NCBI GenBank assembly: GCA_000091205.1 | Contig: AP006491.2 | Origin: Cyanidioschyzon merolae | Lineage: Eukaryota | DNA: 64,000 nt | Strand: one strand, 5' to 3' | Part shown: positions 1 to 60,556 of the stretch, in pieces | Position numbering within the stretch: the stretch's first letter is position 1 | Layout of the letters: the number at the start of each line of letters is the position of its first letter | Position numbers and translations under genes: made by a program | The notes under the pieces: model-generated | The model's input: the letters and a program-made list of their open reading frames with translations, nothing else | Told to the model about the DNA's origin: nothing | The model's database searches: none

Positions 1-964
1 ATGTGACTTGATGTTGCACATTGGAACCAGGTTGAAGCGCTTCCCCATTAGGACAGCCTTCCGTCTCTCCCACTCTTCATTGTTTTCCCCACTCAGCTTC
101 ATCTCCGCTTTGCGTTCGAGTTCACGGTCCAAAAACACGAAGTACCTCAAGATGAGGAGGCAGTATCTTTCCTTATCTTTTTTCAACTCTGATACCTTTT
201 CTGATGGATTCACCAGCCCCAAGACTGCACGGTGCTCTTGTATAACCGCACGGATCACAGAAGCTTCATTCGTGCTCTCGTTTGACGCCTTCTTCTCGAC
301 AAATTCGACCTCATCTTCACGCTTGCGATCTTTCATGATGCCATTGATAATCGCCCATTTTCCATTGCGGGATAGGCCCGGGTAGAGTGCAACCACGGCG
401 CGTATTAAGAAACGTTCGAGGTTCGTTGTCAAATGGTTCTTCAGGTTCGTGATGCACTTCATCGCCCCATAGTCGTAAATATCGCGGTCACCCCTGCATC
501 GAGTACCGTTGAAGCTGTAGAAGGGATGTTTTTCGTGGAGGGCACGCACCAGCTAATGTTCCGTCCGCGCTCTCTCTGTGCCAAGCATCAGGTGACGAAT
601 AAACGTCTTGTCGAGAAACTCGTCCGCAACCTCGACTATTTCCATGTGCGTCACGTCTTCGTACATCTCCCTCGCGCAATGCATCAGTTCTGACGACGCC
701 TTGACAATACTCTTGGAGTACGAATCGAGACGTTTTTTGATAGCGTCTCGCAACTCTTCCCTGTAGGGATCCTTGATATGTCCAAGAAGGAAGGATTTCA
801 CCGCCTTCTCGTTGTACAGCCGTCTTTCTTGCCGCCTTCGACGTAGGGCCTCCCCCCTTCGGTTCCTCTTCTCTTTCTTTTCTTCTGGACTCGGCACTGT
901 TTTTTGTTTTTTTTCTGGCAGCCGGCGACCTTGGGCCCCCAGGATCGTGCACTTTCTTTTCCAT
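1..964 (-). pseudogene. Truncated, frameshifted second copy (N-terminal part) of the TnpB/Fanzor-like gene. It continues beyond the left window edge.
   Basis: Minus-strand ORFs 488..964 and 553..897 encode [11 protein letters not shown]... and ...[41 protein letters not shown]...RTEH. These are near-identical to the N-terminus of the 5739..7913 gene. A 1-nt insertion in a poly-A run shifts the frame relative to the other copy. Plus-strand ORF 8..385 is the antisense of the continuing reading frame, matching ORF 6317..6694(-) of the other copy. Confidence 0.7.
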
Positions 965-1225
965 AACTTTCCTTTTTAGTATTTTTGAGAAAGAACGCTC
1001 TTTGAACCCTTCTGTTATATGCTGCGAAAAAACACTTGACTAGACTTGTTTGAGAGCTGACACAAAAATGAACTGAAAACTATACGTTGCCAAGATCTCA
1101 ACGGGAATCCGACTTTTACAGCTGAACAACACGCTACTGATCTCAATCGAGTTTCCCTTCAACGGCGACATACGCGTCGTGTCTCATGCCTGCCAGATCC
1201 CCCAGGTGCACTCACCGGGCGCGAC
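1..1225. repeat. Left arm of a ~1.2 kb inverted repeat. Its partner is at 5478..6700.
   Basis: The reverse complement of 1021..1225 matches 5478..5690 almost base for base (for example gctgcgaaaaaacacttgactagacttgtttgagagctgacacaaaaatgaactgaaaac). The coding parts match the ORF pairs 8..385(+)/6317..6694(-) and 488..964(-)/5739..6149(+). Confidence 0.85.
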
Positions 1226-4200
1226 TCTTTTTTTCATAGACAAGACGTTTACTTGTGCCCGCATTCTCCGATTGTGCGCTTTTTCTTTTCTTACTTTTTT
1301 TTTCAGTGTGCGGTGACGTATCCATCAACCCCCTACCTCCATGTTACATTACTTGTACTTCGTTTTGGATATTCTGGTCGTTTCATACGTCCTATCGTGT
1401 GCCGAGCCTGCCGAAAGCGACAGCAACGGCGCCTAAAGCGCCGGTGCGGTCGCTGCACGGAGACAGAACGGCTTTTCCATACCACAGAGGGCGTCGGCTC
1501 GAGGCATGGTTCACCCGACGTAGAATCGGGTCTCGTCGTCAGTTTGAGCTCGGATAGTCTGCGGATGCAAGCTTGTCTTCGCTGCACGATACGCTGGAGA
1601 AACTTGGCTGTTAGGATACATCCTAGGAGCCGCCTCTCTCCTTCCTGGTCATGCATGGAATGCGTTGTTGTCGGTTGGCAATGCGAGTTTGTGCTTGACA
1701 CCCACCACTGTGGGTAGGCGCAGAAAGCGCACTGGGCCCGTGTGCGCATCCGATACGCTGGACCTCATGCCTAGAACGTAGCATGTGAGTTTGTTCGCCA
1801 CTAATGAGCGCTGAGGCTCGGTTAGCGGACCATCAGTTACCAGTGCTACACTCCGAGTGAGTGTCCGGCCTTCGACAATCACGGTGATGTCCAGCTGCTG
1901 CTGTCCCCCAAGGAGCTCGCTGCGCTCCTGCTTCCAGCGCGGGCAATGTAGGCCTAAATGTGTCAGCGTCTCGGGTATCTCGTCTCGACAGCAGGGACAG
2001 TGTGATTCCCAGTGCGATTCCAGTGTTCCTATACGGCTTAGAGCCGGTGCTGCCAGCCGGAAGCCACCAACGCGGATTTTGGCGAGCCACTGGGTACCTC
2101 GAGCAAGTCCCGGGAATTCCAGCCTCCTACCAGTACTTGCATGTGTATGCTAGGTTGTAGTTCCGGTATAGAGTCAAGCCGGCGTTACTGGCGCGACTGG
2201 TTCCGTGTATACGTTCCCATATGGTTGTTTGGACCGTTCGCTTGAGGCGGCGGGAGCCTTGTGCATTTCTGGGGAACGATTCGAGCGCATTTTCGCCTAA
2301 GAGGCGCTTCAGCCAAATATGCGTTGATTTCATCCAAGTGTTCTTGCGGTGCGTTGGGGTTTGCATGAAACTCCGACTGAACCAGGTGCGCATGGTGGGC
2401 CCTTTGGCCCATATGCGTGCCCGGCAGCCTGCTGCTATCGCTTCTGTCGAGGGTATTTGGAGTTCAAGTCCGAGTGCCAGCGCGGTGGTTGCTCTGCTCT
2501 GCACTGAGCATCAAACAACGACAACGAGTCGCATTGCCCTGTTGGCGGCTGTCTGCGGACGCGAGGCATTTGTGTGCTTCATGCCGCACCACCCAGCACC
2601 CCAGGTCGCAGGCTGGATGATACACATCCTTCGTGCGCTGGTACGAATTGCTATGCAGATAGAGGGGTCGGATGGGACTGGGCGTGCGATCGCTGTACGT
2701 CTATGCATCTTGGCGATCATCTCGTCAACGTGTGCGTTTTCGTCGAGCGTCGGCGTTAGACAGACCCCCAGGTAGCGATAGTTTTCCCCGATCGGAATTT
2801 CCTGATTCTGCAACCGCCACGAGCGATTGCGAATGCGCTGCGAGTCTCCATGGATGGCCATGACGCCGCACTTCGATGCTCCTACGTTCATCTCCCAGCG
2901 ATCGGCCCAGGCGCTGGCTTGTTGCATGCTACCCGCAAGCGTTTCCGGGGCGGGTGCCAACAGCACTATATCGTCCGCAACTAGACGGCCTGCGAGGCGG
3001 TTCCTATGTGAGGGCTCCTCATCGGGCATCTCCCCAGTCTATCCACGGCACCTCAAGCCCGTATTGTCTGCAGTTTTTCAGCGGATCGTTGATGAAGATG
3101 TTGAAAAGGAGCGGGGATGCGCGCTCGCCCTTTTGTAGTCCACGGCGTATTCTTATACAAGGGGTTCTTGAGCCGTCGCCCAGTCGGATGCGCATCCACG
3201 AGTCTGCATAGAGCGCACGGAAGAACGCTAAGCACTTTCCGGAGACTCCGGCTCGTTCCATCTTCAAAAATAGAGCCTCGTGCGGGACCGTGTCAAAGGC
3301 CTCTTGGAAGTCGATGAAGCATACGTAAGTTGGTTGTTGGCCGCTAATGGAGCGACGTTGCGCCACTTCAATGAGGGTCAGGGCATGGTTCATGCACTCA
3401 TCGCGGCTCCGGAATCCAGCCTGTTCTGGGGCGAAGAACTTGCGTTCCTCGAGGCCTCTCTGGATCCGGTTCGTGAGGTTGGCGCAAAAGTAGCTTCATG
3501 ATTGACGGGATGAGGCCGATAGGCCGGTAGATGTTCATGTCTTTGTGTGTAAGAGTCCTTTTTGAGGATCGGTACGACCTCGGCAGTCCTCCGTACATCT
3601 GGGATGCACGCTTCTTCAAACATGCGTTGAATGAGCTCCAGAAGGCGTTTGCATAAGATTGTGTCAGGTTCATCTGGTATCGATGGTGTCCCTGTTGTCT
3701 CGTATTTTGGGGTCACCAGTTTCATCCACTCCGCAGGGATACCGTCGATGCCAGGTGTTTTGCGGTTGCTTGAGCATAGTAGGGCCCGAACAGATTCAGG
3801 CCAGAAGATTGGCTCGTTCCATTCCGGTACCGGGTCGAGGCGCGGTAGTTCTGCAGCATATTGGTGCCAATAGATTCGGTCTTGGCAGTTCCCAGTTGCG
3901 TCTTCATGCAGCTCTATCCCGTGGTCCGTCCAGGCCTCATTCACTGAGGCACGCTCCGTCCTCAGCGCTTCCTTATAAACGATTGATGTGAGCCGCAAGC
4001 ACTTTTTTGGTGGGTCCAGTCTCGATCGAATGTAGCGCTAGGTCTCATCTTCGTTGGTGCCCTCGAGCATAAATTCCGTCAGGGAGTCGATTTTGCGGTT
4101 TCGATCCTCTCGTTTGTCTTCTCTGGAACGTTTCTTCTTTCTTTTGATAGCGTCCTCATGTTGCGCCTGTAGCGCCGGTAGCGCTGCCTTCGCTTCCTTG

Positions 4201-5477
4201 TCTCCGGCGTTGGCGCGTATGGCGGTGCGGTTGACGATCTTATAGAGTCGGTGGCATTCATCATTCCGAGTTTTGGTACGTCATTCCAGGTACCGCGGTT
4301 TGCAACTGTTGTGTTCTGGTGCAAGCAGTCCCAGTTCTCTGGCAATCTTCTGATTCCCATCTACATACTCGCGTGCCAATTGGTCAAAAGATTTGTATGC
4401 ACGGCTTTTCGGATCTTCAGCGCTGTGAGCAGGTGCCTGGGTTTGGCGACGTTTTTCTTGGGTTCCCGCTGGGGTGCCCTTTCGGGGGATCACTTGCGAT
4501 GGGCTCGTTTGGGGGGGTCTTCTTTCTATTCTTCTGTTTTTTCTTGTCGGTCTTCCTCGTCTTCTTCGGGCTCTTTCCTGAGCTGCTTTCTCTGGATATT
4601 TTGCATCTAAGTGGATCATGAGGTTTCTGTGCCTCCTTCTCCGTATCTGGTTGGGTCTCTTTACCTAATGCAGAGTCCTCCACTTGTATCAGTTCTTCGT
4701 TACAGTACTGGTAATTCGAAATCTCGTCGTCTAGTATCGAGGCCGTCCCACAAATATTCCATGATACGAAACCTATCGAGTCATAGCGCATACGGGAATA
4801 GGAATAGCGCTACGGTACTCCAGAGATACGTTGTCGATTTAGATACACGCTTCACGAGGTGTGTGAACGTACATGCCACCATTGCCCTCTGCATTCCAGT
4901 CGTTCATTGAGTGTCTGCCGCAGCGCTAGCGCGGAATCAGAAGTACATTAGTAAAGGTCGATTCGAATGCGACCTTTATCTTGCCGGACGCGTGTACCTC
5001 TCCTCAACCACAGGGGATACTCTACGAACCAACCTTTCAGCGGCTTCGTATCCGCTCCCCAAATACATAGGCGGGCAAGTCGCTTACTCCACCTTCGACA
5101 GTGAACATACTGGCAGCCGTCTTCAAAAGTATCCGCCGAGATTGTTTCCAAAGTTGAGGTAGGTACGCAAGGTAGGAGGTACAACTGAGCCCGAGTTCGA
5201 GGATAGATCCAGTATTTGCGCCGAAACCTGCAGCGTTGATTCGGGAGGGGCGAATGACTGCTCAGAACTCTCGTCAATATTTTCTGGTGCTACTGCCTCC
5301 GCCCCTCCGTTCGTTGCGGTCAAGGTCCCTGGCGTGGGCTTCCTTCCCCGTCGCTTAAACACCCCGCGTTAACCCATTTTCAGAGCTTCTCTGGAAAATC
5401 TAGACCTCTTAGGCGAGGGTGGTGTGTGGGGCTTTTAAGATAGTGGTTCTTTGATAAATAGTTTGCGACTAGTTTGC
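1226..5477 (-). mobile_element. Degenerate non-LTR (LINE-like) retrotransposon with a frameshifted reverse transcriptase. No intact endonuclease is recognisable.
   Basis: Minus-strand ORFs 3390..3998, 3019..3393 and 2511..3029 carry RT motifs in the expected order: KTPGIDGIPAEWMKL, RRTAEVVPILKK, YVCFIDFQEAFDTVPHEAL, QKGERASPLLFNIFINDPL, LVADDIVLLAP. An A-rich tail lies on the minus strand at ~1226..1300, exactly where the inverted-repeat arm ends. A possible APE-like start (SWNICG) at ~4740 sits in an otherwise unrecognisable segment. The 5' boundary is approximate. Confidence 0.75.
2511..3998 (-). pseudogene. Reverse transcriptase domain of the LINE-like element, split over three frames.
   Basis: RT motifs 0-5 are seen in the order expected on the minus strand. 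Frameshifts fall between ORFs 3390..3998, 3019..3393 and 2511..3029. Confidence 0.75.
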
Positions 5478-6700
5478 ATCACGCTCGGTGAGTGCACCTG
5501 GGGGATCTGGCAGACATGAGACACGACGCGTATGTCGCCGTTGAAGGGAAACTCGATTGGGATCAGTAGCGTGTTGTTCAGCTGTAAAAGTCGGATTCCC
5601 GTTGAGATCTTGGCAACGTATAGTTTTCAGTTCATTTTTGTGTCAGCTCTCAAACAAGTCTAGTCAAGTGTTTTTTCGCAGCATATAACAGAAGGGTTCA
5701 AAGAGCGTTCTTTCTCAAAAATACTAAAAAGGAAAGTTATGGAAAAGAAAGTGCACGATCCCGGAGGCCCAGTGTCGCCGGCTGCCAGAAAAAAACAAAA
5801 AACAGTGCCGAGTCCAGAAGAAAAGGAAGAGAAGAGGAACCGAAGGGGGGAGGTCCTACGTCGAAGGCGGCAAGAAAGACGGCTGTACAACGAGAAGGCG
5901 GTGAAATCCTTCCTTCTTGGACATATCAAGGATCCCTACAGGGAAGAGTTGCGAGACGCTATCAAAAAACGTCTCGATTCGTACTCCAAGAGTATTGTCA
6001 AGGCGTCGTCAGAACTGATGCATTGCGTGAGGGAGATGTACGAAGACGTGACGCACATGGAAATAGTCGAGGTTGCGGACGAGGTTTTCGACAAGACGTT
6101 TATTCGTCACCTGATGCTTGGCACAGAGAGAGCGCGGACGGAACATTAGCTGGTGCGTGCCCTCCACGAAAAACATCCCTTCTACAGCTTCAACGGTACT
6201 CGATGCAGGGGTGACCGCGATATTTACGACTATGGGGCGATGAAGTGCATCACGAACCTGAAGAACCATTTGACAACGAACCTCGAACGTTTCTTAATAC
6301 GCGCCGTGGTTGCACTCTACCCGGGCCTATCCCGCAATGGAAAATGGGCGATTATCAATGGCATCATGAAAGATCGCAAGCGTGAAGATGAGGTCGAATT
6401 TGTCGAGAAGAAGGCGTCAAACGAGAGCACGAATGAAGCTTCTGTGATCCGTGCGGTTATACAAGAGCACCGTGCAGTCTTGGGGCTGGTGAATCCAGCA
6501 GAAAAGGTATCAGAGTTGAAGAAAGATAAGGAAAGATACTGCCTCCTCATCTTGAGGTACTTCGTGTTTTTGGACCGTGAACTCGAACGCAAAGCGGAGA
6601 TGAAGCTGAGTGAAGAAAACAATGAAGAGTGGGAGAGACGGAAGGCTTTCCTAATGGGGAGGCGCTTCAACCTGGTTCCAATGTGCAACATCAAGTCACA
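5478..6700. repeat. Right arm of the ~1.2 kb inverted repeat. It is the 5' flank plus 5' coding region of the Fanzor-like gene.
   Basis: Reverse complement of 1..1225. It includes ~260 bp upstream of the ATG at 5739. Confidence 0.85.
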
Positions 6701-7913
6701 TTTTGTGACTGTCGACTCCAGAATCCTTTACGGCATCATGAAGGGGATCAGTCCGGAGTTCAATGTTAGCAGGGAGGAATTCTCCGGTGAAAACCGGGAG
6801 ACGTCTTGGAAGAGTCTCTTCGATTTCAAACGTCTCAAAGCCAGCAAACAAAAGGTACTTACTGGGTTGATCGAAACCGATGGAGTAGCCTTGTGTATAC
6901 ACTATCGGCGGTTGAAGAGAGATCGTCCAGTCCTGCCCTCGGCTGCGCCCGCGACGAAGGATGAAGATAAGAAGGAAGCGGCTCCTGTAACGCAGGAGGT
7001 GGAGGATAGTGACTTTCTCGTTGACGCGGCGAAGGATGAAGATAAGAAGGAAGCGGCTCCTGCGACGCAGGAGGTGGAGCATAACGACCTTGTCGTTGAC
7101 GCGGACCCTGGAAACACAAATATCATAACCATCGCTTTGCCCAGGCGTGTGGAAGATGATACTGATGGTAACTTACGTCAGAAAGACATGCGAATTTTGA
7201 GCTTCTCGAGAGCGAGATACGATCGAGAATCGGAAATCATGAATGCAAGGAAGAAAACTGAGACATGGAATGCAGGAATGAAGGAGCACCTGGAAGCTTT
7301 GAGCGAGGTGACGAGCCGAGGAGCGGACTTTGAAGCTTTTTGGAAATTCATGGAAGTTCGCATGGCGCATTGGGATGCCCTGTGGAAAGAGTATACAAAG
7401 CCCCGGTGGGCTCGTCTGCGTATGAACTTGTATTGTGGGAAGCAGCGGGCGTTCGCGAATTTGTTCAATGAGTTGAGCGCCTTGAAGGAGGATGGGAGTC
7501 AGAGGCTGGTAGTGGCTTATGGAGCAGGGCGCTGGGCGTCGAAGAAAGGCACTACGCCAGCTCCAACTACGAGGGTGCACAAGGAGTGCGCAAGGCGTTT
7601 TGTTACAATACCTGTAGATGAGTTCCGAACATCGAATACAAACCACGAGCTGGGATGCACACCCCAGAGAGTGGAGATGGAAAAGTGCCAGAGGAGCCCT
7701 GAGGAATTTGCAAATTACGGACCGCTGACGGAGGAGCAAATGGAAAGGAGAGCGAAAGTGCGAGGGCTACTTGCACTATTAAGTACAACGAACGATGGCA
7801 AGAAACGTATGGAGTTCGTGAATCTTGACTTTAATGCCGCTATCAATGTAAGGAGATGTGCGGTGCTGGAAAGTAGACCTCCAGAGTGGACACGAGAGAA
7901 CTTTTTTGGATAA
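5739..7913 (+). CDS. TnpB/Fanzor-like RuvC-domain nuclease (eukaryotic IS605 OrfB homolog), ~724 codons. The frame is interrupted by a single in-frame TAG at 6147..6149. It reads as an N-terminal 136-aa basic/NLS-like ORF 5739..6149 plus a core ORF 6153..7913 whose first ATG is ~6240.
   Basis: A RuvC-I-like motif [17 protein letters not shown] is at ~7086..7135. A RuvC-II-region block [28 protein letters not shown] has Ala where TnpB has the catalytic Glu, as described for Fanzor1. The TS motif plus Zn-finger remnant [15 protein letters not shown]...KC follows. The RuvC-III motif [10 protein letters not shown] is at ~7821..7850. The N-terminus is Lys/Arg-rich (RKKQKT...[17 protein letters not shown]). 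Confidence 0.6.
6956..7105 (+). repeat. 75-bp tandem duplication (x2) inside the Fanzor-like ORF.
   Basis: gaaggatgaagataagaaggaagcggctcctg(t/c)(a/g)acgcaggaggtggag... occurs twice in tandem. It encodes [25 protein letters not shown] then [25 protein letters not shown], and runs into the RuvC-I motif. Confidence 0.85.
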
Positions 7914-8134
7914 CCTCCCAAAGTCGAACTATATGAGAAAAAGTTGGAAGCAGAAGTAGGTGGCCGGTCGAAAAAGGCGCGGAGGCGCCTGCGCGTCGAC
8001 TGGAAACGTTTCGTGTAAGGCGCGGTTTTCCCGCCACTACTGTAAACTGCCGACGTCGTTCGACTTAGAGCGGCGTTGGCGGCTGTCCGTTCAGGGTGGC
8101 CTCCTGTGCGAGCTTGGCGTCGATACTTGCACAT

Positions 8135-14099: not shown

Positions 14100-16205
14100 A
14101 TCCCTGGAATCTCTCTATAAGGGCATCTGCTGAGCGCGCCGCCGCACTTGGAAAGCCTACACCAGAGCCTGATCCGCAGCCGGGGAACCGCATCGCATAC
14201 GACCCGCGCACAAGTGACGCTGCACGCCGCGTGAGTGGCGCGGTTTTCGGAAGGGAAGAAGGGGCAGGTGCGAGGCGTGCCTCATGGACGTCGTTACAAG
14301 TCCAGCGCGTCGTGCATCGCAGCGAAGCGGTGCGTCTGCGAGTGGGCGCTCTGCATGCCAGCCTCTGGGACACTCGGTCTCAGCAGAAACGAACAACCCG
14401 CCTGCGTAGGAGCTTTTCATCGCTGTATCGGTTGCATCTGAGCCTGAAAACAAAAACCCCATTTTAAATGTTGCGGCGTTGGTTTTGGTGACGTCTGCGT
14501 AGCGAGTCCCAACTCGGATCTCGATACCTAGAAACTCGCTCTGAGCTTGCAGATAGCACACACATGCCGAAAACGCGCTCCAGACACGATTGATCACCTG
14601 CTGTGCCATTTCATGTCATCCACAGGTCATCCACCGACGGCTTGGAAAAGTTGCAGTGGCGCGGTAGAGGGTCAAAGTATGGCGTGGACGCAGACGATGT
14701 TGCGCGGCAATGACAAGCGCTGCCCGGGCATTTTTTCGCACGTGTCTGCATTGAGTGGAGCGAGTCGCCGTAGAAAACTCGGACGTGCGCGTGAAAGCTT
14801 TTCTTTTGCTTCCCATGGCCATCAACACCAGTCTCTGCGGGCTTTTCATGCGACTGCCTCTTTATCCGCTCTCTTATCTCCGGATTTGCGTACGGCTATC
14901 GCTGCTCTCCGACAAGCTCCGATATCAACAGTCGAATATTGTTGATGGCAGCGTTATTGTACAGATATCATCGCTTCCGGCTATTGTCGACGCCTATGAT
15001 GCAGATGAGGCAGTTGCGAATTACGTTTCAATAGCCATTTTCATGTTCTTTGGCTGCAGCACCGATGCGTCCGTAGCAGCGGTGGCGCTCGGCTGAACTC
15101 AGGGATTTTCACGTGTCCACTATATATCCTGGTCCGGGGCCTGCACTGTGGCGCGTAAACGCTTGTTGCATTGCTCGGAATGTGCACATAACGGATACGA
15201 AAGGTGCCTCTCGATGCACGCCTCCGTTTCCGAGCCCGGTGCCGTACCCAACGATCTCGGGCCTCTTTTAGGCGATCTCCTCGGCGTGTGCTCTGTCCGC
15301 TCCGAGTACAAACGCACGTTGCTCCGTTCGATAGCGGATTCGAAGAACGCGGTTTGGTTCTTGATGAAATAAGTAGCAGAAGGGGCACCAAGAATGCGGA
15401 ACAACTCGAGAAATATCGATCTCCCTACGCTGCGTTCGTGGAAAGCGTCGACGAACCCTCTATTGGATGCGATCGCTCCGATGATTCAGGTTTGAGTCTA
15501 AGACACTGTTCCATGCAAACAGAACGGACGGGAGCCTCTGGGAGCTCATCTCGCGAGAGGTATAAAGTTAGAATTTTAGTGAACTTTCTGCTTGAGCTTC
15601 TGAACAAGTCGTCATACGATGACATCGAATGTTTCCCCCAAAAAAGAATAAGTCCGACCACTGACAAGCAATTCGATAAAAGTAGCTTTCCAGCTCTATG
15701 TTAAGCATTGAAAGGGAGAAAAGGTTGCCGCATCTTCGAAACTTTAACTTCTAGACGCAAGGTCCCGCGAGCCGGTCGAGTGTGCCGGGCTTGCGCTCCA
15801 TGTGCCTCTGCAGTGGCGGATGCTGCTGTGAGCCTTGAACAACTCGTCCGCAATGCAGTGTACTCTCGGACTCGGAGCGGCCAGGCCGTGTCTGGGCGTT
15901 GCCCTGGTCGCGGTGGACTCTTTGCATATCGCTCCGCGCTGCCGCATGCAGCGCGTCTGTCCGCGCGGCTCGCAGGCTCCCAGAATGAGTACGTTCTCCG
16001 ATTCTGCCACTGGTGAATCACACCTCGAGGTACCACTCTCTAAGGTATGGCAAAGCCGTTCTCTCCCTATGATGCATACGCACCAGCGATATAAGCACTA
16101 GTGCAGGTGCAGCAAGGCAGGTACTCAGCACTCGATAGAACCTAAGAAACGACCAGTCTCTCCGAGAGAAACAAAGGGTAATGGAACCTGAGCGCAGGAT
16201 GCAGC

Positions 16206-17573
16206 ATGATAGACAATTTCCCAACCCCCGATGTACATCCTGCAAGCCAGGGTTCACGGTCAATCTTAACGATTTGTCGAGCAAAAAAAATCGTGTATCC
16301 GGGAAGCAGCGATCCCCAGTTGCGCGCTGATGCTAGGCATCTGGTACAGGCTCCCGCACGGTCATCGTTGCCCCAGGGCGCGATCGTTGCCACTGCGCCG
16401 CGCCCTTGCATTTTGTCGCACTCACTGGAAGCCGCTGGCGCTGTTTCGCCGCAGCGTTTGCGTGGCGCCTGCGCCTTCGCTCGCCACGAGCGCGTGCGCA
16501 CGCATGCGCCTGCGACCTCAGAGGCGCGCGCACGTCCGGCCCTAAAGGGTAACAGTGCTCGCAGATACGCTGCGAACGGTGGGCACGTGAGGATGACTGC
16601 TTTATCCGCGGCCTTTGTAGGGTCTTTGGGACCTGGTACACGAATTCAATTGCGCTGTACGCGTCAGCAGTCAAGAGTCCCTCTGGGGAGCGGTGGAGCG
16701 AGTGCTCGGAGCAGTTTGCGCGCGGGACGTCCACGGCGCCTCGCGTGCTGCGCGCCGGAGGCCAGCGGTCTCTCTGAGCCTATCTTTCAGACGAGGACCT
16801 CAGCTGATGCTGAGCACGCCAGTTTTCCAAACGGTCGCAGTGTTCCGAGGAAAGAGTCTGGAGCCGCGTTGCCGGAAGACACCGGCGAGCACGCTGGGAG
16901 CCTACCAGCTTCGTTGCCTGTCGACGTGCCGTCACTTGGGACCGCCCCAGAGAGAACCAGTTACTCTGTTTGTCCCGAGCTGTTGTCGTCGACCGCAAGC
17001 ACTTTCCGACCGTTTACTCCGACCGAGGCGTTTGGTGGCCTTGGCGTCTCGTGGGACGAGCTGGAGCCCCCGCAGCTCGGGGAACGGCTCTCGATTTTCC
17101 AGCGGGTAGCCGCTGACGTCGGGCCGGAAGCGTGGGCGCGAATTGCCTCTGCTGAGAAAATGGACGGTGACGAGGATGAACAGCTCGCCACGGCGGAGGG
17201 CTTCGACCGACTGCGGAAGCACCAGTTGCTGTTTGATTTCGAAATAAACCCCTGCCGCAAAGAAGAGGCTCGCGAGATGCTCATCCATCGAATGCGCAAA
17301 ACGCGGCAGCGCATACTGTATTTGCAGAAGGAGATTGACAAGCTTCCGGAGCGACTGGAGAAACTCATTGCCGAACTGGATGTATGCACAGAGCGCGGCG
17401 ATCGACGGCGGCGTCAGGACGTGCTAGCGCTCGGGAACCGCCTCTGGGCGCGACATCATGAACTGATCGACATCATCGCACGGGAGGAAGTGCGCATGGA
17501 AGAGTACTTGTATGTCTGGGGGCGTCTGCGTTGTAGCGATGACTCGGCGGATGTAACTCAAATTGGGGTGTGA
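16206..17573 (+). CDS. Hypothetical protein. The N-terminal half is Arg/Ala/Ser-rich low complexity and the C-terminal region is coiled-coil.
   Basis: A long ATG-initiated ORF. The C-terminal ~150 aa (FDRLRKHQLLFDFEINPCRKEEAREMLIHRMRKTRQRILYLQKEIDKLPERLEKLIAEL) looks protein-like. The N-terminal part overlaps several antisense ORFs, so it may not be coding. Confidence 0.35.
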   Translation: MIDNFPTPDVHPASQGSRSILTICRAKKIVYPGSSDPQLRADARHLVQAPARSSLPQGAIVATAPRPCILSHSLEAAGAVSPQRLRGACAFARHERVRTHAPATSEARARPALKGNSARRYAANGGHVRMTALSAAFVGSLGPGTRIQLRCTRQQSRVPLGSGGASARSSLRAGRPRRLACCAPEASGLSEPIFQTRTSADAEHASFPNGRSVPRKESGAALPEDTGEHAGSLPASLPVDVPSLGTAPERTSYSVCPELLSSTASTFRPFTPTEAFGGLGVSWDELEPPQLGERLSIFQRVAADVGPEAWARIASAEKMDGDEDEQLATAEGFDRLRKHQLLFDFEINPCRKEEAREMLIHRMRKTRQRILYLQKEIDKLPERLEKLIAELDVCTERGDRRRRQDVLALGNRLWARHHELIDIIAREEVRMEEYLYVWGRLRCSDDSADVTQIGV

Positions 17574-36148: not shown

Positions 36149-38196
36149 GCCTCATCGTTCTTTGTGGAGCAGGCGTTCGCACACGTCGCCACGCAGCAAC
36201 ACGCGATCGTTGAATTCGGCGCATGATCGACGCGCTGGTGGTGCTGTTGACGACCCCCGACTTGAAGTTCGCACAACTCCTGGGGTACGAAGCGGATTTC
36301 TGGTCACTTGTCTCGAAGCAGATAGCATTCACATACTCTGCAGATCCCAAGTAGGGCTCGTATGGTCTGCATCATGAAGAACTAGGCACGGGATTGTGAT
36401 GCTACTCGCGCATACATACGTAAACCATCGGAACTTTTTTTGCAAAAGGTTGTGGAATCTCTTCATCGGGCTGGAAAGCCTGTGTTGCACCCGGACATGT
36501 GAATGACCGATCGGAGCTCGGTTTGCAATCGTAGTGTGGCCTTTTCAGTGCGACGAGTAACATCCCCGATCGCTGGAGCGCGTTGTTCACGCTGCTATCA
36601 GAACGGTGCTATCGAAAACGATAGAGCAACAAAATGGTGACCTGTGGCGCCAATCGCCTGCGTGTTCAAGGCACAAACGCTATACTCGTGCAGACTGAAA
36701 TGAAGTACTGTAGCGGTCGCTCTGTTCTTGCATTGAAATCTTTTCCGATTTTCCTCATGCACGACCTCGACAATCGTGGTGCAGCAATAAAGGCGCACGG
36801 ATTCATTGACAATTTTATGAATCTCGGTCGTTTTTGGCGGGCCTTGTGCGACGCGTTGCCGTTCGAATTCGTTAGGTCACCAAAATTGATATGATTCGGG
36901 AAGTACTCGAAAAAGGATTCATGAAAGAACCGACATCAATATCGAATTCATGCGCGTACGCGTCCAACCTTCTCGTTTCGTTCCGTATGGCATCCTGAAG
37001 TTCAGCATGCTTCAAATCTTCGTTCTTTCGTTTTGAAGGCAACTCGTGCACTGATCAATTCGCGCAGCTGAGTAGACAAGGGAACGAATTCGACGTCGTC
37101 CCTTGACAACTATTTCACAAGCTTATGCCGAAAGTTCACTAGAATTTCACCTCAAACAGTCAAATTCGCTTGAAAGACAAATGCTGCTCTCTCTGCGGCC
37201 ATCGACGTATTGCCATTCGACGGCAGCATGATACCCTTCATGGGATATTCTCCCAGGGGCAAATGTCTCCCCTGTTTGCATACGAGATGGCGTTGGAATC
37301 GAACTTGAGTCCTTGCTGTAATCGCTTCTGGTGGAGCGCGCGTCGTCATTTTCCATGAATGGAACGTCGATCGATCGAAATTTCTCGATCTCTTCTCTAG
37401 CCTGAATTTTGTCTACCTGAACTCGACTCGTCATGGACGAACTACTGTTCCTCTTATCCTCGGTCGAATGGAAGAGCGTCCATTGGCGCCTGGGGCGGAG
37501 CGCGCACTCGCCGACGGGATCGCCCAGACGAGACCCGTGATCGCTGGCAACAGCACCGGGCGCAGCACCGGAGAAATGCATCGAAGCAAGCCCCCGTCCA
37601 GGTCATGGGCGTGTCGCGAGCGATGAGGCCCGCGTTCACACGCATGAGGGCGATCCTCGCTGGAGCAGAACGAGGACAGCGAGTGTTGGATACATAGAAG
37701 CACCGGGCCAAAAGCCAGTGACACCTCTGGAAAAGGCGCACCTCGGCTGTACGCAACGAAGATTCCCTGATCGCAACTGGCAACTGCGCATCAACGGTGC
37801 TGACAGCAACCGAAAGCTGCGAAATAGGGGCTTTAACGCTCCCGTGAACATCCTTCGACTACTGACATTGACGCTACACGCACAGGACACACACTGGTAT
37901 GGAGAATTCCAGAGAAAAGAGAACGGAAAAGGAATCAGGTGCAGAAGAAACCGAAATGGTCGCGGGTACGTCCGAGTTAGCTGATGTGTCCAGTTTTATC
38001 CGAAAATGATTAGAGTTACAGGCAGGCGCAGCGCCATACACCGTTCCGAGGGCGACGCGCGATCGCATTGCCGCTGTGTTCCGCTACGGTGGGCGAGTCT
38101 CGCCCCAGTGCGATCGCTGGCCTGAGCGAGTGCTTCGGAGCGTACGCGCCAGGTTCTCTTCTGAGCGGGGTTTGCGTCGGGCAATCGCAGGAGACC

Positions 38197-57265: not shown

Positions 57266-60200
57266 CAGCCTCGACAGCAGAGGCGCTGAACACTGGCAGC
57301 GGTGCTGATACTAGCCTTCGCAATCAACTGCATACCAATGCTGGTCATCAGGAACGATGCGCTGGCTGCTCGCAGCGTCAAGTGCTCCTGGCCGGCACCG
57401 AGCTGCTGGCGAGCATCCGTGCGCGCGCGCAGTCGACCGCCGCGACGCCACCGAGGCCTGCCAGTGTCCAAGTTCCAGACGCGCCGCTCAGGCGACCGCG
57501 GCCTCCTGCAACGTCCGAACCTCCCCTGGGGGCACAGATACGGGACCCCGCGGCACACGCGCCTCGCCGGAAGGCAGGTCCATAGGAGCGCCCACCGCGC
57601 CACCTCTGGTGACGGATACCGCTCCAGGTACAGGAGGCAATGGGGTTGCGGCACGCGTAGCAGCGCAGCGGATCCATTTTTAGGCTCGTGCTTGTGAATG
57701 CGCTCCCGAGACGCCGACGAGTGCCTCTGAACTGCATGCAGTCGATGTGCTTGCGCGCTCCCGACCTGCTCCCGAGTCGACAGCAACGCCAATCCTCTGG
57801 CTGGAAAGCAGCGCACTCGGGGCGAGGTATTCCAGCGGCAGAAGTGTGTGCCTGCATAGCGCCGTTGCTGCAGGCGCGACACCGCTGCGCCGAATCGCCC
57901 ACTGTGCTGATGCCGGTCCCGCTGCAGTCCTGCGCTTCGGAAAAGGCGCCCAGCCTCATCTTTGATGCCGTTCCTCATGAGCGAGTGCGACCAGAGATAG
58001 CACTGCACGTCACCGCAAGAAACATCACTGCATTGGCCTGCTGCACGAAAATCAGCCAAAATCGCGCACAGTCCGCGTCGCTACACCATTTGCGGACTCC
58101 ACGCGTGCCTTGGGTTCTGGAAATGTGCATGCTACGCGCCGAGGCATCCAGGTCAGCGCTGGCAAAGGCCTGCGAACCAACCGACAGCCGGTGCTACAAA
58201 CGTGGGCGCAGGTCGCTCATGGGCATGCGCTCGCGTTCGTGACGCTTCTCCAGTCGGTGTCGCGCGCTGCTCGTCATCGCGCACACGTTCTCGCGTAACC
58301 GCTGGAGGCGTGGATCGCAGCTCGCCATCACCGTAGTCGACAGCGAACAGCTCCCGCTCCACGAGTGTCGCCCGCCAGGGCATCGGCGCATTCATACGAT
58401 CGCAAAGCGCCGCGAACCCGCACAGCCATGTCAAAGAAACGGATCGCCTCCACTTGCCGAACTCGGGCGTGCAAATTAAGGTTTAGGTCTCTGCCCAGTG
58501 TCACGAACAGCAGCTTCTGCAGGCTTTCTCTGCGACTGCCTCCTTTTCCCATTTCTTTTCCGGATTCACATACGCCAATATCTCCGTTGCTTGTAACTCC
58601 GTTTACGCTGTCGAAGGATGTTGATGGCAGCGTTCAAGCTCGATTTCGACGCTCCGGATTGTTCTTGACGCATTTCGTGTACAGGCAGAAGTTGCGAACG
58701 ACAGCCGGCTTTGCCATTTTCATCTTCCTTGCATACATACTCGATGCCCTTGGACGCAGCGGTGTATCTTGACTGTGGCCAGATGGTCGCGAAGGTACCC
58801 CAAACTTCGCATTCCGGGTGCTGCTGTGTATCGGCGAAGCGATCGCTGCGTCGCTCGGGAAATGCCGGTGACAGGCAGAGAAAGCTTTCACCGATGCCGA
58901 CCGCGTTTCAGCTGCCGCTGTCGTATGCGGCGATCACGTCTTTCTGCTGCATGATTCTTTTGAAGAGCTATCTGTCTGCTGCATACGCAAGCGCAAACTG
59001 TTCCATATGATGGACAATCTGTGGAAGCTGATTTTGTCCATGACGAAGTAACCATCAGAAGGATACCTCAGACCGGAGTACAAATCGATAAATCTTGATC
59101 CGTCTACGTTCTCTTCGTTCAGCGCTACGACGCACTCTGCACTGGAAGCGATCGCTGCGGTGACTGGTCTCCAAGTCCAATAGTCTTTTCTACTGTGAGC
59201 AGAACAGACGGGAGCCCTGTGGCAGCATGCACCGCGACGAGTATGAAACTGTTCGTGAATGCCGTTTCTTTGATGACCATAGAGAGGGGCGGATTTCTCC
59301 TTCGAACCAAGTCGATACTTTTTCTTGATAAGTGCTCTGTACTTTCGACATGTTGTTATGAACAAGTCGTCAGGGGCCCAAGTCCTATAGTTTACGTCGT
59401 TCATCCAGCGCCGCGAATCGCTGCGCGCATGAGTTGCATGGAAACAGAAAGATCGAACAGTTGAAGAACGCGTGACTTGAGCGTATTGCGCTTGAGGAAA
59501 ACAGAAGAATAGAGGCTTGTATTTATGAATCGAATAATGATTTAGGTCATTTTTACCAATCCTCATTCGATGTTTTCCTGAATCATCTTGTTCCCGATGA
59601 CGTTCCAAATTCCAACCGCCAAGTGTCAAAAGAGTCACCCCGAGAACACGACCGGGAATCCCTAAACGAAATATGAATCCATAAGCCCATATTGCTGCAC
59701 TTTCATGTCAAGGCTATCCCTGGAGAGCATGCTCGGAACAAAAAATCTCGTGGTACGAACAGAGCGATCAGTGCTGTGCCACTTTAATCTCATATGCGCT
59801 GATAGACTTTCACATGCATTGCGTTCCACACCCAGGGGAATGGCATCAAATGCTTCTTCACGGTTGATAGTGGATGCGTTCGAAGTGCGCTCAGTTGAGG
59901 AAACAAAAATTCAAGGGAAACTTATGGACATGAAAGTCGGGGATCCTGGAGCCCGATCATCGCCGAGCGCCGACTAAAAACGAGAAAACCCTCTCCTCGC
60001 CGATCGTCGAGTGAAAAAGGGCAAGCGACAAAGAAGAAGAGAAGGAGAGCTTGACGAGAAAAGTGCTTTGCCCGAGGAGACAATGACGAGAATGCAGTGG
60101 CCATGAGGGCACCAGCTTGAGGACGCCTTGCACTGGTGAGTTCAAACAGCGACAATGAACGCAAGGAGTTCGTGAACCGAGACTTCACCGCCGCTATCTA

Positions 60201-60556
60201 TCTCAGAAGATGTGTGGAGCTGACCACGAGACCCGAGGAGCTGACGCCATCCAACTTCCTGGGTTACACTCTAATGCCCGCAGCGCACAAGGAAAAGCTG
60301 AAACCGTTCGCAGCGGGCCAGTCAAACAAGTCTAGGAGGCGTCCGTGATTACATATGTATGTAATCACCATGGTCGTGGAGATTTTTTCGTTTTACTGAT
60401 CACCCGTACCCGCCCGCGCCTTGCGGAGCTCTCGCCCAAATCGCTGTCGTTTGCGCTGTGGTCCACGTACCGACGGTTCCAAGAACTGTCGCTCTACGGA
60501 GCGGGCGTTTTCGCGCTCCCTGGCACAGTGAATACGCTTCTTTGTTGAGAAGGCTG

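Follow-up and report, generated by a model that had tools for sequence, protein, structure and literature searches.

A defective LINE between two inverted Fanzor1 copies on chromosome 9 of Cyanidioschyzon merolae, and the recurrence of LINE-Fanzor junctions at other loci

We analysed a stretch of 64,000 nucleotides of Cyanidioschyzon merolae DNA (the window), which comes from chromosome 9 of C. merolae 10D, six of its open reading frames (ORFs) being identical to annotated 10D proteins (BAM80068 to BAM80081). At its left end, two copies of a mobile element encoding a Fanzor1 protein lie head to head, as an inverted repeat, on both sides of a defective long interspersed nuclear element (LINE). 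At about 20 further independent loci, a LINE-family element in one or the other orientation likewise lies directly upstream of the Fanzor 5' terminus. We would give about an even chance to a history in which the LINE entered an already existing head-to-head Fanzor pair at a hot spot in its centre, the arms were gene-converted, and the palindrome promotes rearrangement.

The Fanzor gene family and this element have been known since 2013, and the genome annotation already includes the LINE family; the recurrence of the LINE-Fanzor junctions, the exceptional identity of the arms and the rearranged versions in related strains are new. Fanzor1 elements such as CMe-1A, the type found here, have no transposase, terminal inverted repeats (TIRs) or target-site duplications (TSDs), and LINEs had previously been noted only in their vicinity. 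A 2026 review mentioned LINEs near Fanzors, yet reported no evidence of retrotransposons carrying Fanzors (PMC13565253). In the literature, we did not find recurrent exact end-to-end joints, the palindromic layout or a history of conversion and rearrangement described.

Structure of the inverted repeat

Aligned over 1224 columns, positions 1-1224 and the reverse complement of 5479-6701 differ by 19 substitutions and one 1-nt indel. The resulting identity of 98.4% is slightly above the approximately 97% estimated in a preliminary description of this DNA, and the inverted repeat is not attributable to chance. The sole indel is an extra T at 907, within a T-run of the left arm. Each arm comprises 260 bp upstream of the ATG and 321 codons (5479-5738 and 5739-6701 in the right arm), practically the 260 bp and 320 codons initially proposed. 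In the left arm, the 5' untranslated region (UTR) occupies 965-1224 and the ATG 962-964, and the coding sequence leaves the window at position 1. The spacer between the arms (1225-5478) measures 4254 bp. The whole is a genuine quasi-palindrome of chromosome 9, located between the Rpr2/CcmE side and SMC1, with the following parts:

1..1224, minus strand: left arm, 1.22 kb from the 5' end of the left Fanzor1 copy (CMe-1A core), known by the arm alignment.
1225..1227, minus strand: 3-nt filler (GAG on the minus strand) from the LINE A-tail to the left Fanzor 5' terminus, from junction comparison.
1228..5468, minus strand: predicted defective L1-like retrotransposon without long terminal repeats (non-LTR), from RVT_1 hits and termini common to other copies.
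5469..5478, minus strand: 10-nt filler (TGCAAACTAG on the minus strand) from the LINE 5' end to the right Fanzor 5' terminus, from junction comparison.
5479..6701, plus strand: right arm, 1.22 kb from the 5' end of the right Fanzor1 copy, known by the arm alignment.
5479..8082, plus strand: complete core of the right Fanzor1 element, CMe-1A type, from the termini of more than 13 independent copies, the profile and the fold.
8047..8082, plus strand: Fanzor 3'-terminal stem-loop, candidate last stem of an omega-RNA scaffold, from conserved ends and folding.

The boundaries of both elements were fixed with 71 related loci from metagenomes, designated here by L numbers, and several more retrieved through exact proteins. 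Homology among Fanzor copies starts at window position 5475-5478 at more than 13 independent loci and ends at 8077-8082; therefore the mobile core is 5479-8082, and this comparison shows that the arms end inwards at the 5' terminus of the Fanzor element itself. Likewise, other LINE copies end at the same points as this one (3' end, 1228; 5' end, 5468), which shows that the spacer ends at the LINE's own termini. The earlier claim that the arms stop at the LINE boundaries is thus correct to within fillers of 3 and 10 nt. The A-tail of the LINE faces the left Fanzor copy and its 5' end faces the right one; the A-rich tail seen against the left arm is an A7 run (1228-1234) lying 3 nt from the arm end. 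At the position of the 3-nt filler, GAA is found instead at four other loci. The 10-nt filler TGCAAACTAG is a near-repeat of the first bases of the LINE; it is identical at the equivalent junction of L048 and partly present in L005/9/10.

The spacer LINE and its short derivative R

The minus strand of the spacer encodes a LINE-type reverse transcriptase (RT) split across several frames. Pfam RVT_1 was matched with E = 1.7e-10 and 0.002, and with 7.8e-15 in the orthologous copy; the RT motifs are distributed over several frames at about 2514-3700, and a C-terminal ORF with a CCHC motif (HCPCCRDEIPETLTHLGLHCP) lies within 1652-2149. The best PDB matches of this RT were R2 and L1 ORF2p. The closest named proteins are two C. 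merolae proteins annotated as 'retroelement, alive' on other chromosomes (82-84% identity), followed by LINE RTs of Galdieria and plants. No AP endonuclease domain was detected in the LINE, the sole remnant being its first motif, 'SWNICG', near 4750. The spacer is accordingly a predicted L1-like LINE, defective through loss of the endonuclease and frameshifts, in agreement with its previous designation as a degenerate non-LTR retrotransposon.

A run of A7-A9 is the common LINE 3' end in more than 20 copies, and the LINE parts that adjoin Fanzors range from 280 to 4254 bp. The window also contains one solo copy of a short element, here called R, whose ends resemble those of the LINE:

15645-16290, plus strand: solo short element R, about 650 bp, with an A8 tail.

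The interior of this R copy is 70% similar to LINE positions 1374-1529, and the copy overlaps the start of the ORF at 16206-17573. Copies of R are present at many related loci, often in contact with Fanzor 5' ends.

The flanks of solo LINE and R 3' ends are diverse, so the LINE is not strictly site-specific; a strictly site-specific element of the R2/Tx1 kind was rejected on these flanks and on the two orientations relative to Fanzor. The preliminary description had proposed a search for solo copies, and both were found: LINEs without Fanzor flanks and Fanzors without a LINE. Therefore the arms are not LINE sequence, and the condition named at that time as refuting the interpretation, flanks belonging to the LINE, does not hold.

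Recurrent LINE-Fanzor junctions at other loci

The downstream flanks differ among all the Fanzor copies compared and therefore the loci are separate and independent. According to what lies upstream of the Fanzor 5' end, they were arranged in a few classes. In Class A (tandem), the 3' tail of a LINE or R meets the Fanzor 5' end and the junction reads A-run, GAA or GAG, TCGCGC. This class comprises the left junction of the window, L015, L021, L032, L024, L017/18 and L054/57, with LINE parts of 4254, at least 1690, at least 1030, 855, 555 (plus a 5' piece), about 290 and about 280 bp. All share one 3' junction, and the LINEs are 5'-truncated to different extents, which is a signature of target-primed insertion. 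In Class C (inverted), the 5' end of a LINE or R faces the Fanzor 5' end; the elements are full-length or truncated and there are small target deletions. LINEs are in this position at the right junction of the window, L048, L005/9/10, L038/49 and L001/4, and R at L007, L016/19, L039, L040/42, L047, L050, L054/57 and L072. The upstream neighbour in Class B is an unrelated module of 628-643 bp, complete or 5'-truncated.

The three-part layout of the window is repeated at L054/57, where Fanzor (minus), an R of about 650 bp and Fanzor (plus) follow each other. The arms of that locus are 70-88% alike, and therefore head-to-head pairs arise from distinct copies. Head-to-head pairs of 5'-truncated Fanzors joined almost directly were also found, in L044 (8784-11284, joined at 6863|6809) and L058 (15-2049, joined at 7048-7063|6937), the L058 type being present as well in L060, L045, L046 and L062; the arms of these truncated pairs are about 81% alike. 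Two LINEs were retrieved through their RT and not through Fanzor. That of L078 adjoins an antisense Fanzor fragment, and that of L077 ends in unique DNA. L078 contains in addition, at 1578-2069 and a few kb from the LINE/Fanzor junction, a fragment of a DDE_3 (Tc1/mariner-type) transposase.

The preliminary description had left two options, insertion of the LINE at the junction of a pre-existing palindrome or an association of the Fanzor element with the LINE. The evidence suggests both together: the two are recurrent neighbours elsewhere, and the simplest history of this locus is insertion into a pair.

Identity of the arms and variation between strains

Fanzor copies from different loci were always 80-87% identical to each other, and values above 97% were found only between orthologous contigs and between the two window arms. 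The 98.4% identity of the arms probably reflects gene conversion between the inverted copies and not recent transposition.

The left flank of the window in 10D was deduced from the accession order, which gives GAR1, LAP, CcmE, two unidentified genes and SMC1, and from L075 (contig Ga0080006_1153697). This contig carries a full-length Fanzor copy of 2.6 kb followed by Rpr2, CcmE, LAP and GAR1. This copy, which has the expected orientation and two variants specific to the left arm, is the ortholog of the left copy. As anticipated, the left copy runs off the window edge; in this related strain it is complete and lies beside the 10D left-flank genes. Compared with the right copy of the window, the L075 copy is at most 2% diverged up to about 7395 and about 18% in the final 700 bp. 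The identity of its 3' part is 89% with the orthologous right copies (L002/L076), versus about 83-85% with other copies. 10D and the orthologous contig L002 likewise differ unevenly, by about 5% within the LINE, 19% at 7500-7750 and less than 0.5% in the flanking genes. The tract at 7500-7750 (250 bp) differs by that 19% from L002, L003 and L076, which come from strains otherwise 99.5% identical, and probably stems from ectopic gene conversion by another Fanzor copy. We read the whole pattern as arm-to-arm conversion having homogenised roughly the inner 1.9 kb, with ectopic conversion accounting for the other patches. The initial picture of paired Fanzor copies stands; their probable homogenisation and their pseudogene state (see below) had not been foreseen.

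Two contigs show different arrangements of the locus. In L075 (1-1090), the left copy adjoins the 5' part of the LINE and not its tail; this is either an inversion through the arms or a path choice of the assembler. In L076 (contig Ga0506597_000052), the right copy (98% identical to that of 10D) starts at 5608, where another Fanzor copy (85%) joins it in antisense orientation; this other copy is truncated at 5871 and lies beside an M24 peptidase gene, with SMC1 on the side of the right copy. The LINE and the left arm are missing, and the junction (3925-3940) has a 5-nt microhomology, TCTTG. Five shared nucleotides do not suffice for a k-mer chimera, and such an overlap is typical of end joining. 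That L075 and L076 are the two sides of one haplotype was rejected because their outer flanks do not match. Both contigs, with the loss of the LINE and left arm through a microhomology junction in one and the reversed LINE in the other, support the suspected instability of the palindrome.

Large palindromes such as those of the human Y chromosome are maintained by arm-to-arm gene conversion. The C. merolae locus resembles them in an arm identity far above the family level, mosaic divergence and structural variation between strains. It differs in that its arms are much smaller (probably about 1.9 kb homogenised), consist of transposon pseudogenes and enclose a LINE spacer.

The Fanzor element and its relationship with CMe-1A

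CMe-1A is a Fanzor1-encoding element of C. merolae reported by Bao and Jurka (2013; PMC3627910). It was described as an unclassified element of about 3 kb without TIRs or TSDs, present in about 150 copies that are each about 80% identical to the consensus, and its 5' 635 bp correspond to TE-N2_CMe (PMC3627910). The window element is of the CMe-1A type: it comes from the same organism, encodes a Fanzor1 protein of about 700 aa, lacks TIRs and detectable TSDs, and its copies are about 80-87% alike, the comparison being with the published description. Moreover, in many related copies a module of about 635 bp lies directly upstream of the core, as fits the reported TE-N2_CMe. This module (628-643 bp) precedes the core at about 11 related loci and is probably TE-N2_CMe. 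It is unrelated to the LINE or R and absent from the whole window; an apparent remnant of it upstream of L018 was rejected as a chance resemblance. The two window copies differ from CMe-1A as reported in lacking the module, their 5' termini lying against the LINE, so that they are core-only, each core being of 2.6 kb, and in being pseudogenes within a 98.4% inverted repeat.

The core begins with a 5'-terminal palindrome, GCGCTCggtGAGCGC, and ends, after a conserved 3' UTR, with the stem-loop at 8047-8082. Among 46 copies this stem has two versions with compensatory changes, CGUCGUUCGA/UCGAACGGCG and AACGUUUUUC/GAAAGGCGUU. The second keeps its pairing only when G.U pairs are counted, which hints at a structure formed at the RNA level. 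Individual folding of the 3' ends gave a mean minimum free energy of -14.7, versus -10.7 for shuffled sequences; RNAalifold on the 46 ends gave no usable consensus. Neither Rfam nor tRNA searches produced a match in the window, and no Rfam match was found in a related element. No poly(A) follows the Fanzor 3' end in any of the compared copies, and no convincing direct repeats were seen at about 20 composite boundaries or around the LINE.

Helitrons and IS200/IS605-like elements are characterised by subterminal hairpins, absence of TIRs and TSDs, 5'-TC and 3'-CTRR termini and an HUH/Rep transposase. The Fanzor copies begin with TC and carry a 5' hairpin (GCGCTCggtGAGCGC) and a 3' hairpin (CGTTCGActtTCGAACG); their 3' end is not CTRR, and no transposase was found in or near the copies.

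The Fanzor1 gene and its decay

The right gene occupies one frame from 5739 to 7913, broken by a TAG at 6147-6149, and its 3' UTR extends over 7914-8082. The identical in-frame TAG is found in the left arm (553-555), which additionally carries a +1 frameshift due to the extra T at 907. Both copies are pseudogenes.

Single-sequence searches with the 586-aa window ORF gave no Pfam or PDB match. This ORF has 83 homologues, mostly from hot-spring metagenomes, which bear the precomputed family DUF8286 (a literature search for PF26935/DUF8286 returned nothing), and more distant members, one of them also bearing PF07282, came from a second profile search. While a 14-sequence family profile missed the PDB Fanzors, a 45-sequence profile matched PpFz of Parasitella (E = 3.6e-19), SpuFz of Spizellomyces (2.2e-13) and GtFz of Guillardia (4.4e-6), and 12 of these 45 members matched PF07282 (Cas12f1-like TNB domain). 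An intact relative, P0004 (752 aa, 71-76% identical to the window ORF), was modelled with AlphaFold (AF2) in place of the window ORF, with a predicted local distance difference test (pLDDT) of 82 and a predicted template modelling (pTM) score of 0.78. In a Foldseek comparison of the model with the PDB, the seven best matches were all Fanzor1 structures, of WED/REC/RuvC architecture (E = 1e-16 to 1e-13, TM up to 0.72 over the target). Profile, predicted fold and the previously described CMe-1A thus place the gene in the Fanzor1 family, and the label 'Fanzor-like' given to it at first was well chosen.

The near-invariant motifs of the family are DPG, DEFRTS and (R/L)DFNAAIN; the RuvC motifs of the right copy include DPGNTN and DEFRTS. 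All three acidic residues are kept in the window copy, and next to the RuvC-III aspartate NRD has become NLD. The window copy and its close relatives (DEFRTSYTHHELGC) have no CxxC pair at the zinc-finger position, six residues beyond the RuvC-II glutamate; PF07282 is retained in more distant family members. Compared with the solved Fanzor1 nucleases (SpuFz, 8gkh/9ce*; PpFz, 9cf0-3; GtFz, 9cer), the likeness consists in the profile match, the predicted fold and the aligned RuvC D/E/D motifs. Sequence identity is only 12-15%, the C. merolae clade lacks the CxxC zinc-finger cysteines, and the window copies have a premature stop and the change of NRD to NLD.

A coding 75-bp tandem repeat is located at 6950-7099, just before RuvC-I, with two copies in the window, four in P0004 and more in P0010; it falls in a disordered region of the P0004 model (residues 378-470). 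The only named distant homologues of the Fanzor family are P0082 and P0083 of Haematococcus lacustris, one of which is fused to a hAT dimerisation domain (PF05699).

Proposed insertion of the LINE at the Fanzor 5' boundary

In the history that we favour, the point just upstream of the Fanzor 5' terminus would be a hot spot for target-primed insertion of LINE-family elements in either orientation. A LINE inserting into the centre of an existing head-to-head Fanzor pair would give the structure of the window, gene conversion between the inverted copies would produce or maintain their 98.4% identity, and the palindrome would promote rearrangement. It is the recurrent occupancy of the Fanzor 5' boundary by LINEs that argues for insertion into an existing pair here, and gene conversion would explain both the high identity of the arms and the TAG that they share. 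The hot spot itself could be due to an AT-rich target retained next to the element, or to breaks made at the element end.

Several observations weigh against this history. No TSD was found around the LINE or any Fanzor or LINE composite. The frequency of the association is biased upward because the loci were mostly retrieved for containing Fanzor, and solo LINE and R copies with diverse flanks exist. The GAA filler shared by four tail junctions and the shared TGCAAACTAG could derive from one ancestral junction copied as a composite. An intact, exactly abutting head-to-head pair without spacer was not seen among the loci, those without spacer (L044, the L058 group and L076) being truncated. Finally, the left junction of the locus is backed by the 10D sequence alone, and L075, the sole contig spanning the left copy, has the other end of the LINE beside it.

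Nested or target-preferring non-LTR retrotransposons are known, such as Tx1 in Tx1D and the self-nesting Zepp type, as is endonuclease-independent insertion of LINEs at DNA breaks. The C. merolae LINE family resembles these in repeatedly occupying one position relative to another mobile element, in its fixed 3' junction and variable 5' truncation, and in that the window copy has no endonuclease. It differs in that its preference is not strict, both orientations occur and no TSDs were found.

The recurrent exact joints between Fanzor 5' ends and LINEs offer a testable handle on the mobility of these elements, be it through a hot spot at the element end, capture at breaks or copying at the RNA level. 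The locus is, besides, a compact natural transposon palindrome with signs of conversion and rearrangement between close strains, in a eukaryotic genome that is very small and dense in genes. If the association were safe-haven nesting only, it would be an ordinary cluster of nested repeats.

Alternative histories

That the structure is a fold-back or a mis-joined repeat in the source genome assembly is hardly credible. It is true that the left junction has no independent contig support, the metagenome contigs breaking inside the LINE, and that L075 links the left copy to the opposite LINE end. However, the 20 differences between the arms are spread along their length and are almost all substitutions, unlike a fold-back; the independent assemblies L002/L003 contain both the right junction and the LINE from 2082 onward; a separate Fanzor copy adjoins the left-flank genes in the expected orientation; and the same types of junction are present at other loci. 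A more serious alternative, although still an improbable one, is that the LINE reverse transcriptase copies transcripts of the Fanzor element. A template jump from the 5' end of the Fanzor RNA to the poly(A) tail of a LINE or R would give the tail-to-head junctions, twin priming or snap-back the head-to-head ones, and the triple could be one event from one transcript pool. The sharp Fanzor 5' end, the fillers of 0-10 nt at both junctions and the TAG common to both arms agree with this, as does the constancy of the 3' end: many 5'-truncated copies (starting at 6863, 6873, 6937 or 7145) still end at 8077-8082, with no clear 3'-truncated reverse case away from contig ends. The upstream 635-bp module is also variably 5'-truncated (full, or 159, 125, 52 or 38 bp), head-to-head truncated dimers exist (L044, 6863|6809; the L058 group, 7048|6937; L076), and the Fanzor element has no TIRs, TSDs or transposase (PMC3627910). 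Nevertheless, Fanzor 3' ends are never followed by poly(A) or another A-rich tail and are unlike the LINE 3' end, and TSDs were not found. Moreover, the count of truncations comes from a crude chaining of copies, confounded by the variable tandem repeat and by contig ends, and the arms of L057, 70-88% alike, show that the triple of that locus is not from one transcript pool. In its wider form, in which C. merolae Fanzor1 is retroposed by the LINE machinery and makes chimeras with LINE/SINE-like RNAs (SINE, short interspersed nuclear element) through template switching and twin priming, or breaks at its 5' end systematically capture LINE cDNA, the proposal is improbable to the same degree. If either version were true, it would be the first mechanistic link of a Fanzor element to retrotransposition, a link that reviews currently deem unsupported.

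Marginally less likely again is that the composites themselves have spread, as [LINE+Fanzor] tandem and [Fanzor/LINE] head-to-head units, or that a recent inverted duplication placed a second version of the right copy on the other side of the LINE, the arms being young duplicates. The same fillers at several loci (GAA in four tail junctions, TGCAAACTAG in L048) fit the spread of units, and the variant of the Fanzor 5' terminus is particular to each junction class (AGCGCGGTCGA... at the R head-to-head junctions), as it would be in lineages. The two copies are also mutually closest even in their 3' part, with the 89% of L075 to the right copies of L002/L076 versus about 83-85%. On the other hand, the variable LINE lengths require an extra process, we know of no mechanism able to move such LINE/Fanzor composites, and one recent duplication would not be expected to leave the 3' 700 bp of L075 11-18% diverged next to an inner 1.9 kb that is at most 2% diverged. 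We consider it distinctly unlikely that the Fanzor element is the targeting partner, inserting or homing next to LINE or R termini, whose A/T-rich ends would supply, within a GC-rich genome, the AT-rich target-adjacent motif (TAM) or target, or doing so by RNA-guided cleavage and repair. The flanks upstream of Fanzor 5' ends are A-rich in the tail class and T-rich in the head-to-head class, and the TAMs reported for Fanzor1 are of 4-5 nt, AT-rich and on the 5' side of the element (PMC13565253). Yet the commonest upstream neighbour, the 635-bp module, ends GC-rich (...GGTGCACGCA), unique flanks have no common motif, the omega-RNA guide lies beyond the 3' end, where all flanks differ, and the variable 5' truncation of the LINE better suits insertion of the LINE.

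Other repeated sequences of the window

A third, strongly degraded and internally deleted Fanzor relic was found at 59823-60369 on the plus strand, corresponding to core positions of about 190-325 and 2284-2527 with approximately 70-78% identity. A second Fanzor copy at the far end of the window was ruled out, the 582-aa ORF located there being calreticulin. Further dispersed repeats at 36867-37256 and 58481-59702 are common to 6-10 related loci and are unrelated to the Fanzor core, the LINE, R or the 635-bp module. Finally, the Sey1/RHD3-like protein BAM80068 (22202-23995, minus strand) clusters at 90% identity or more with BAM80050, encoded 18 genes away on the same chromosome, and this similarity suggests a segmental duplication.

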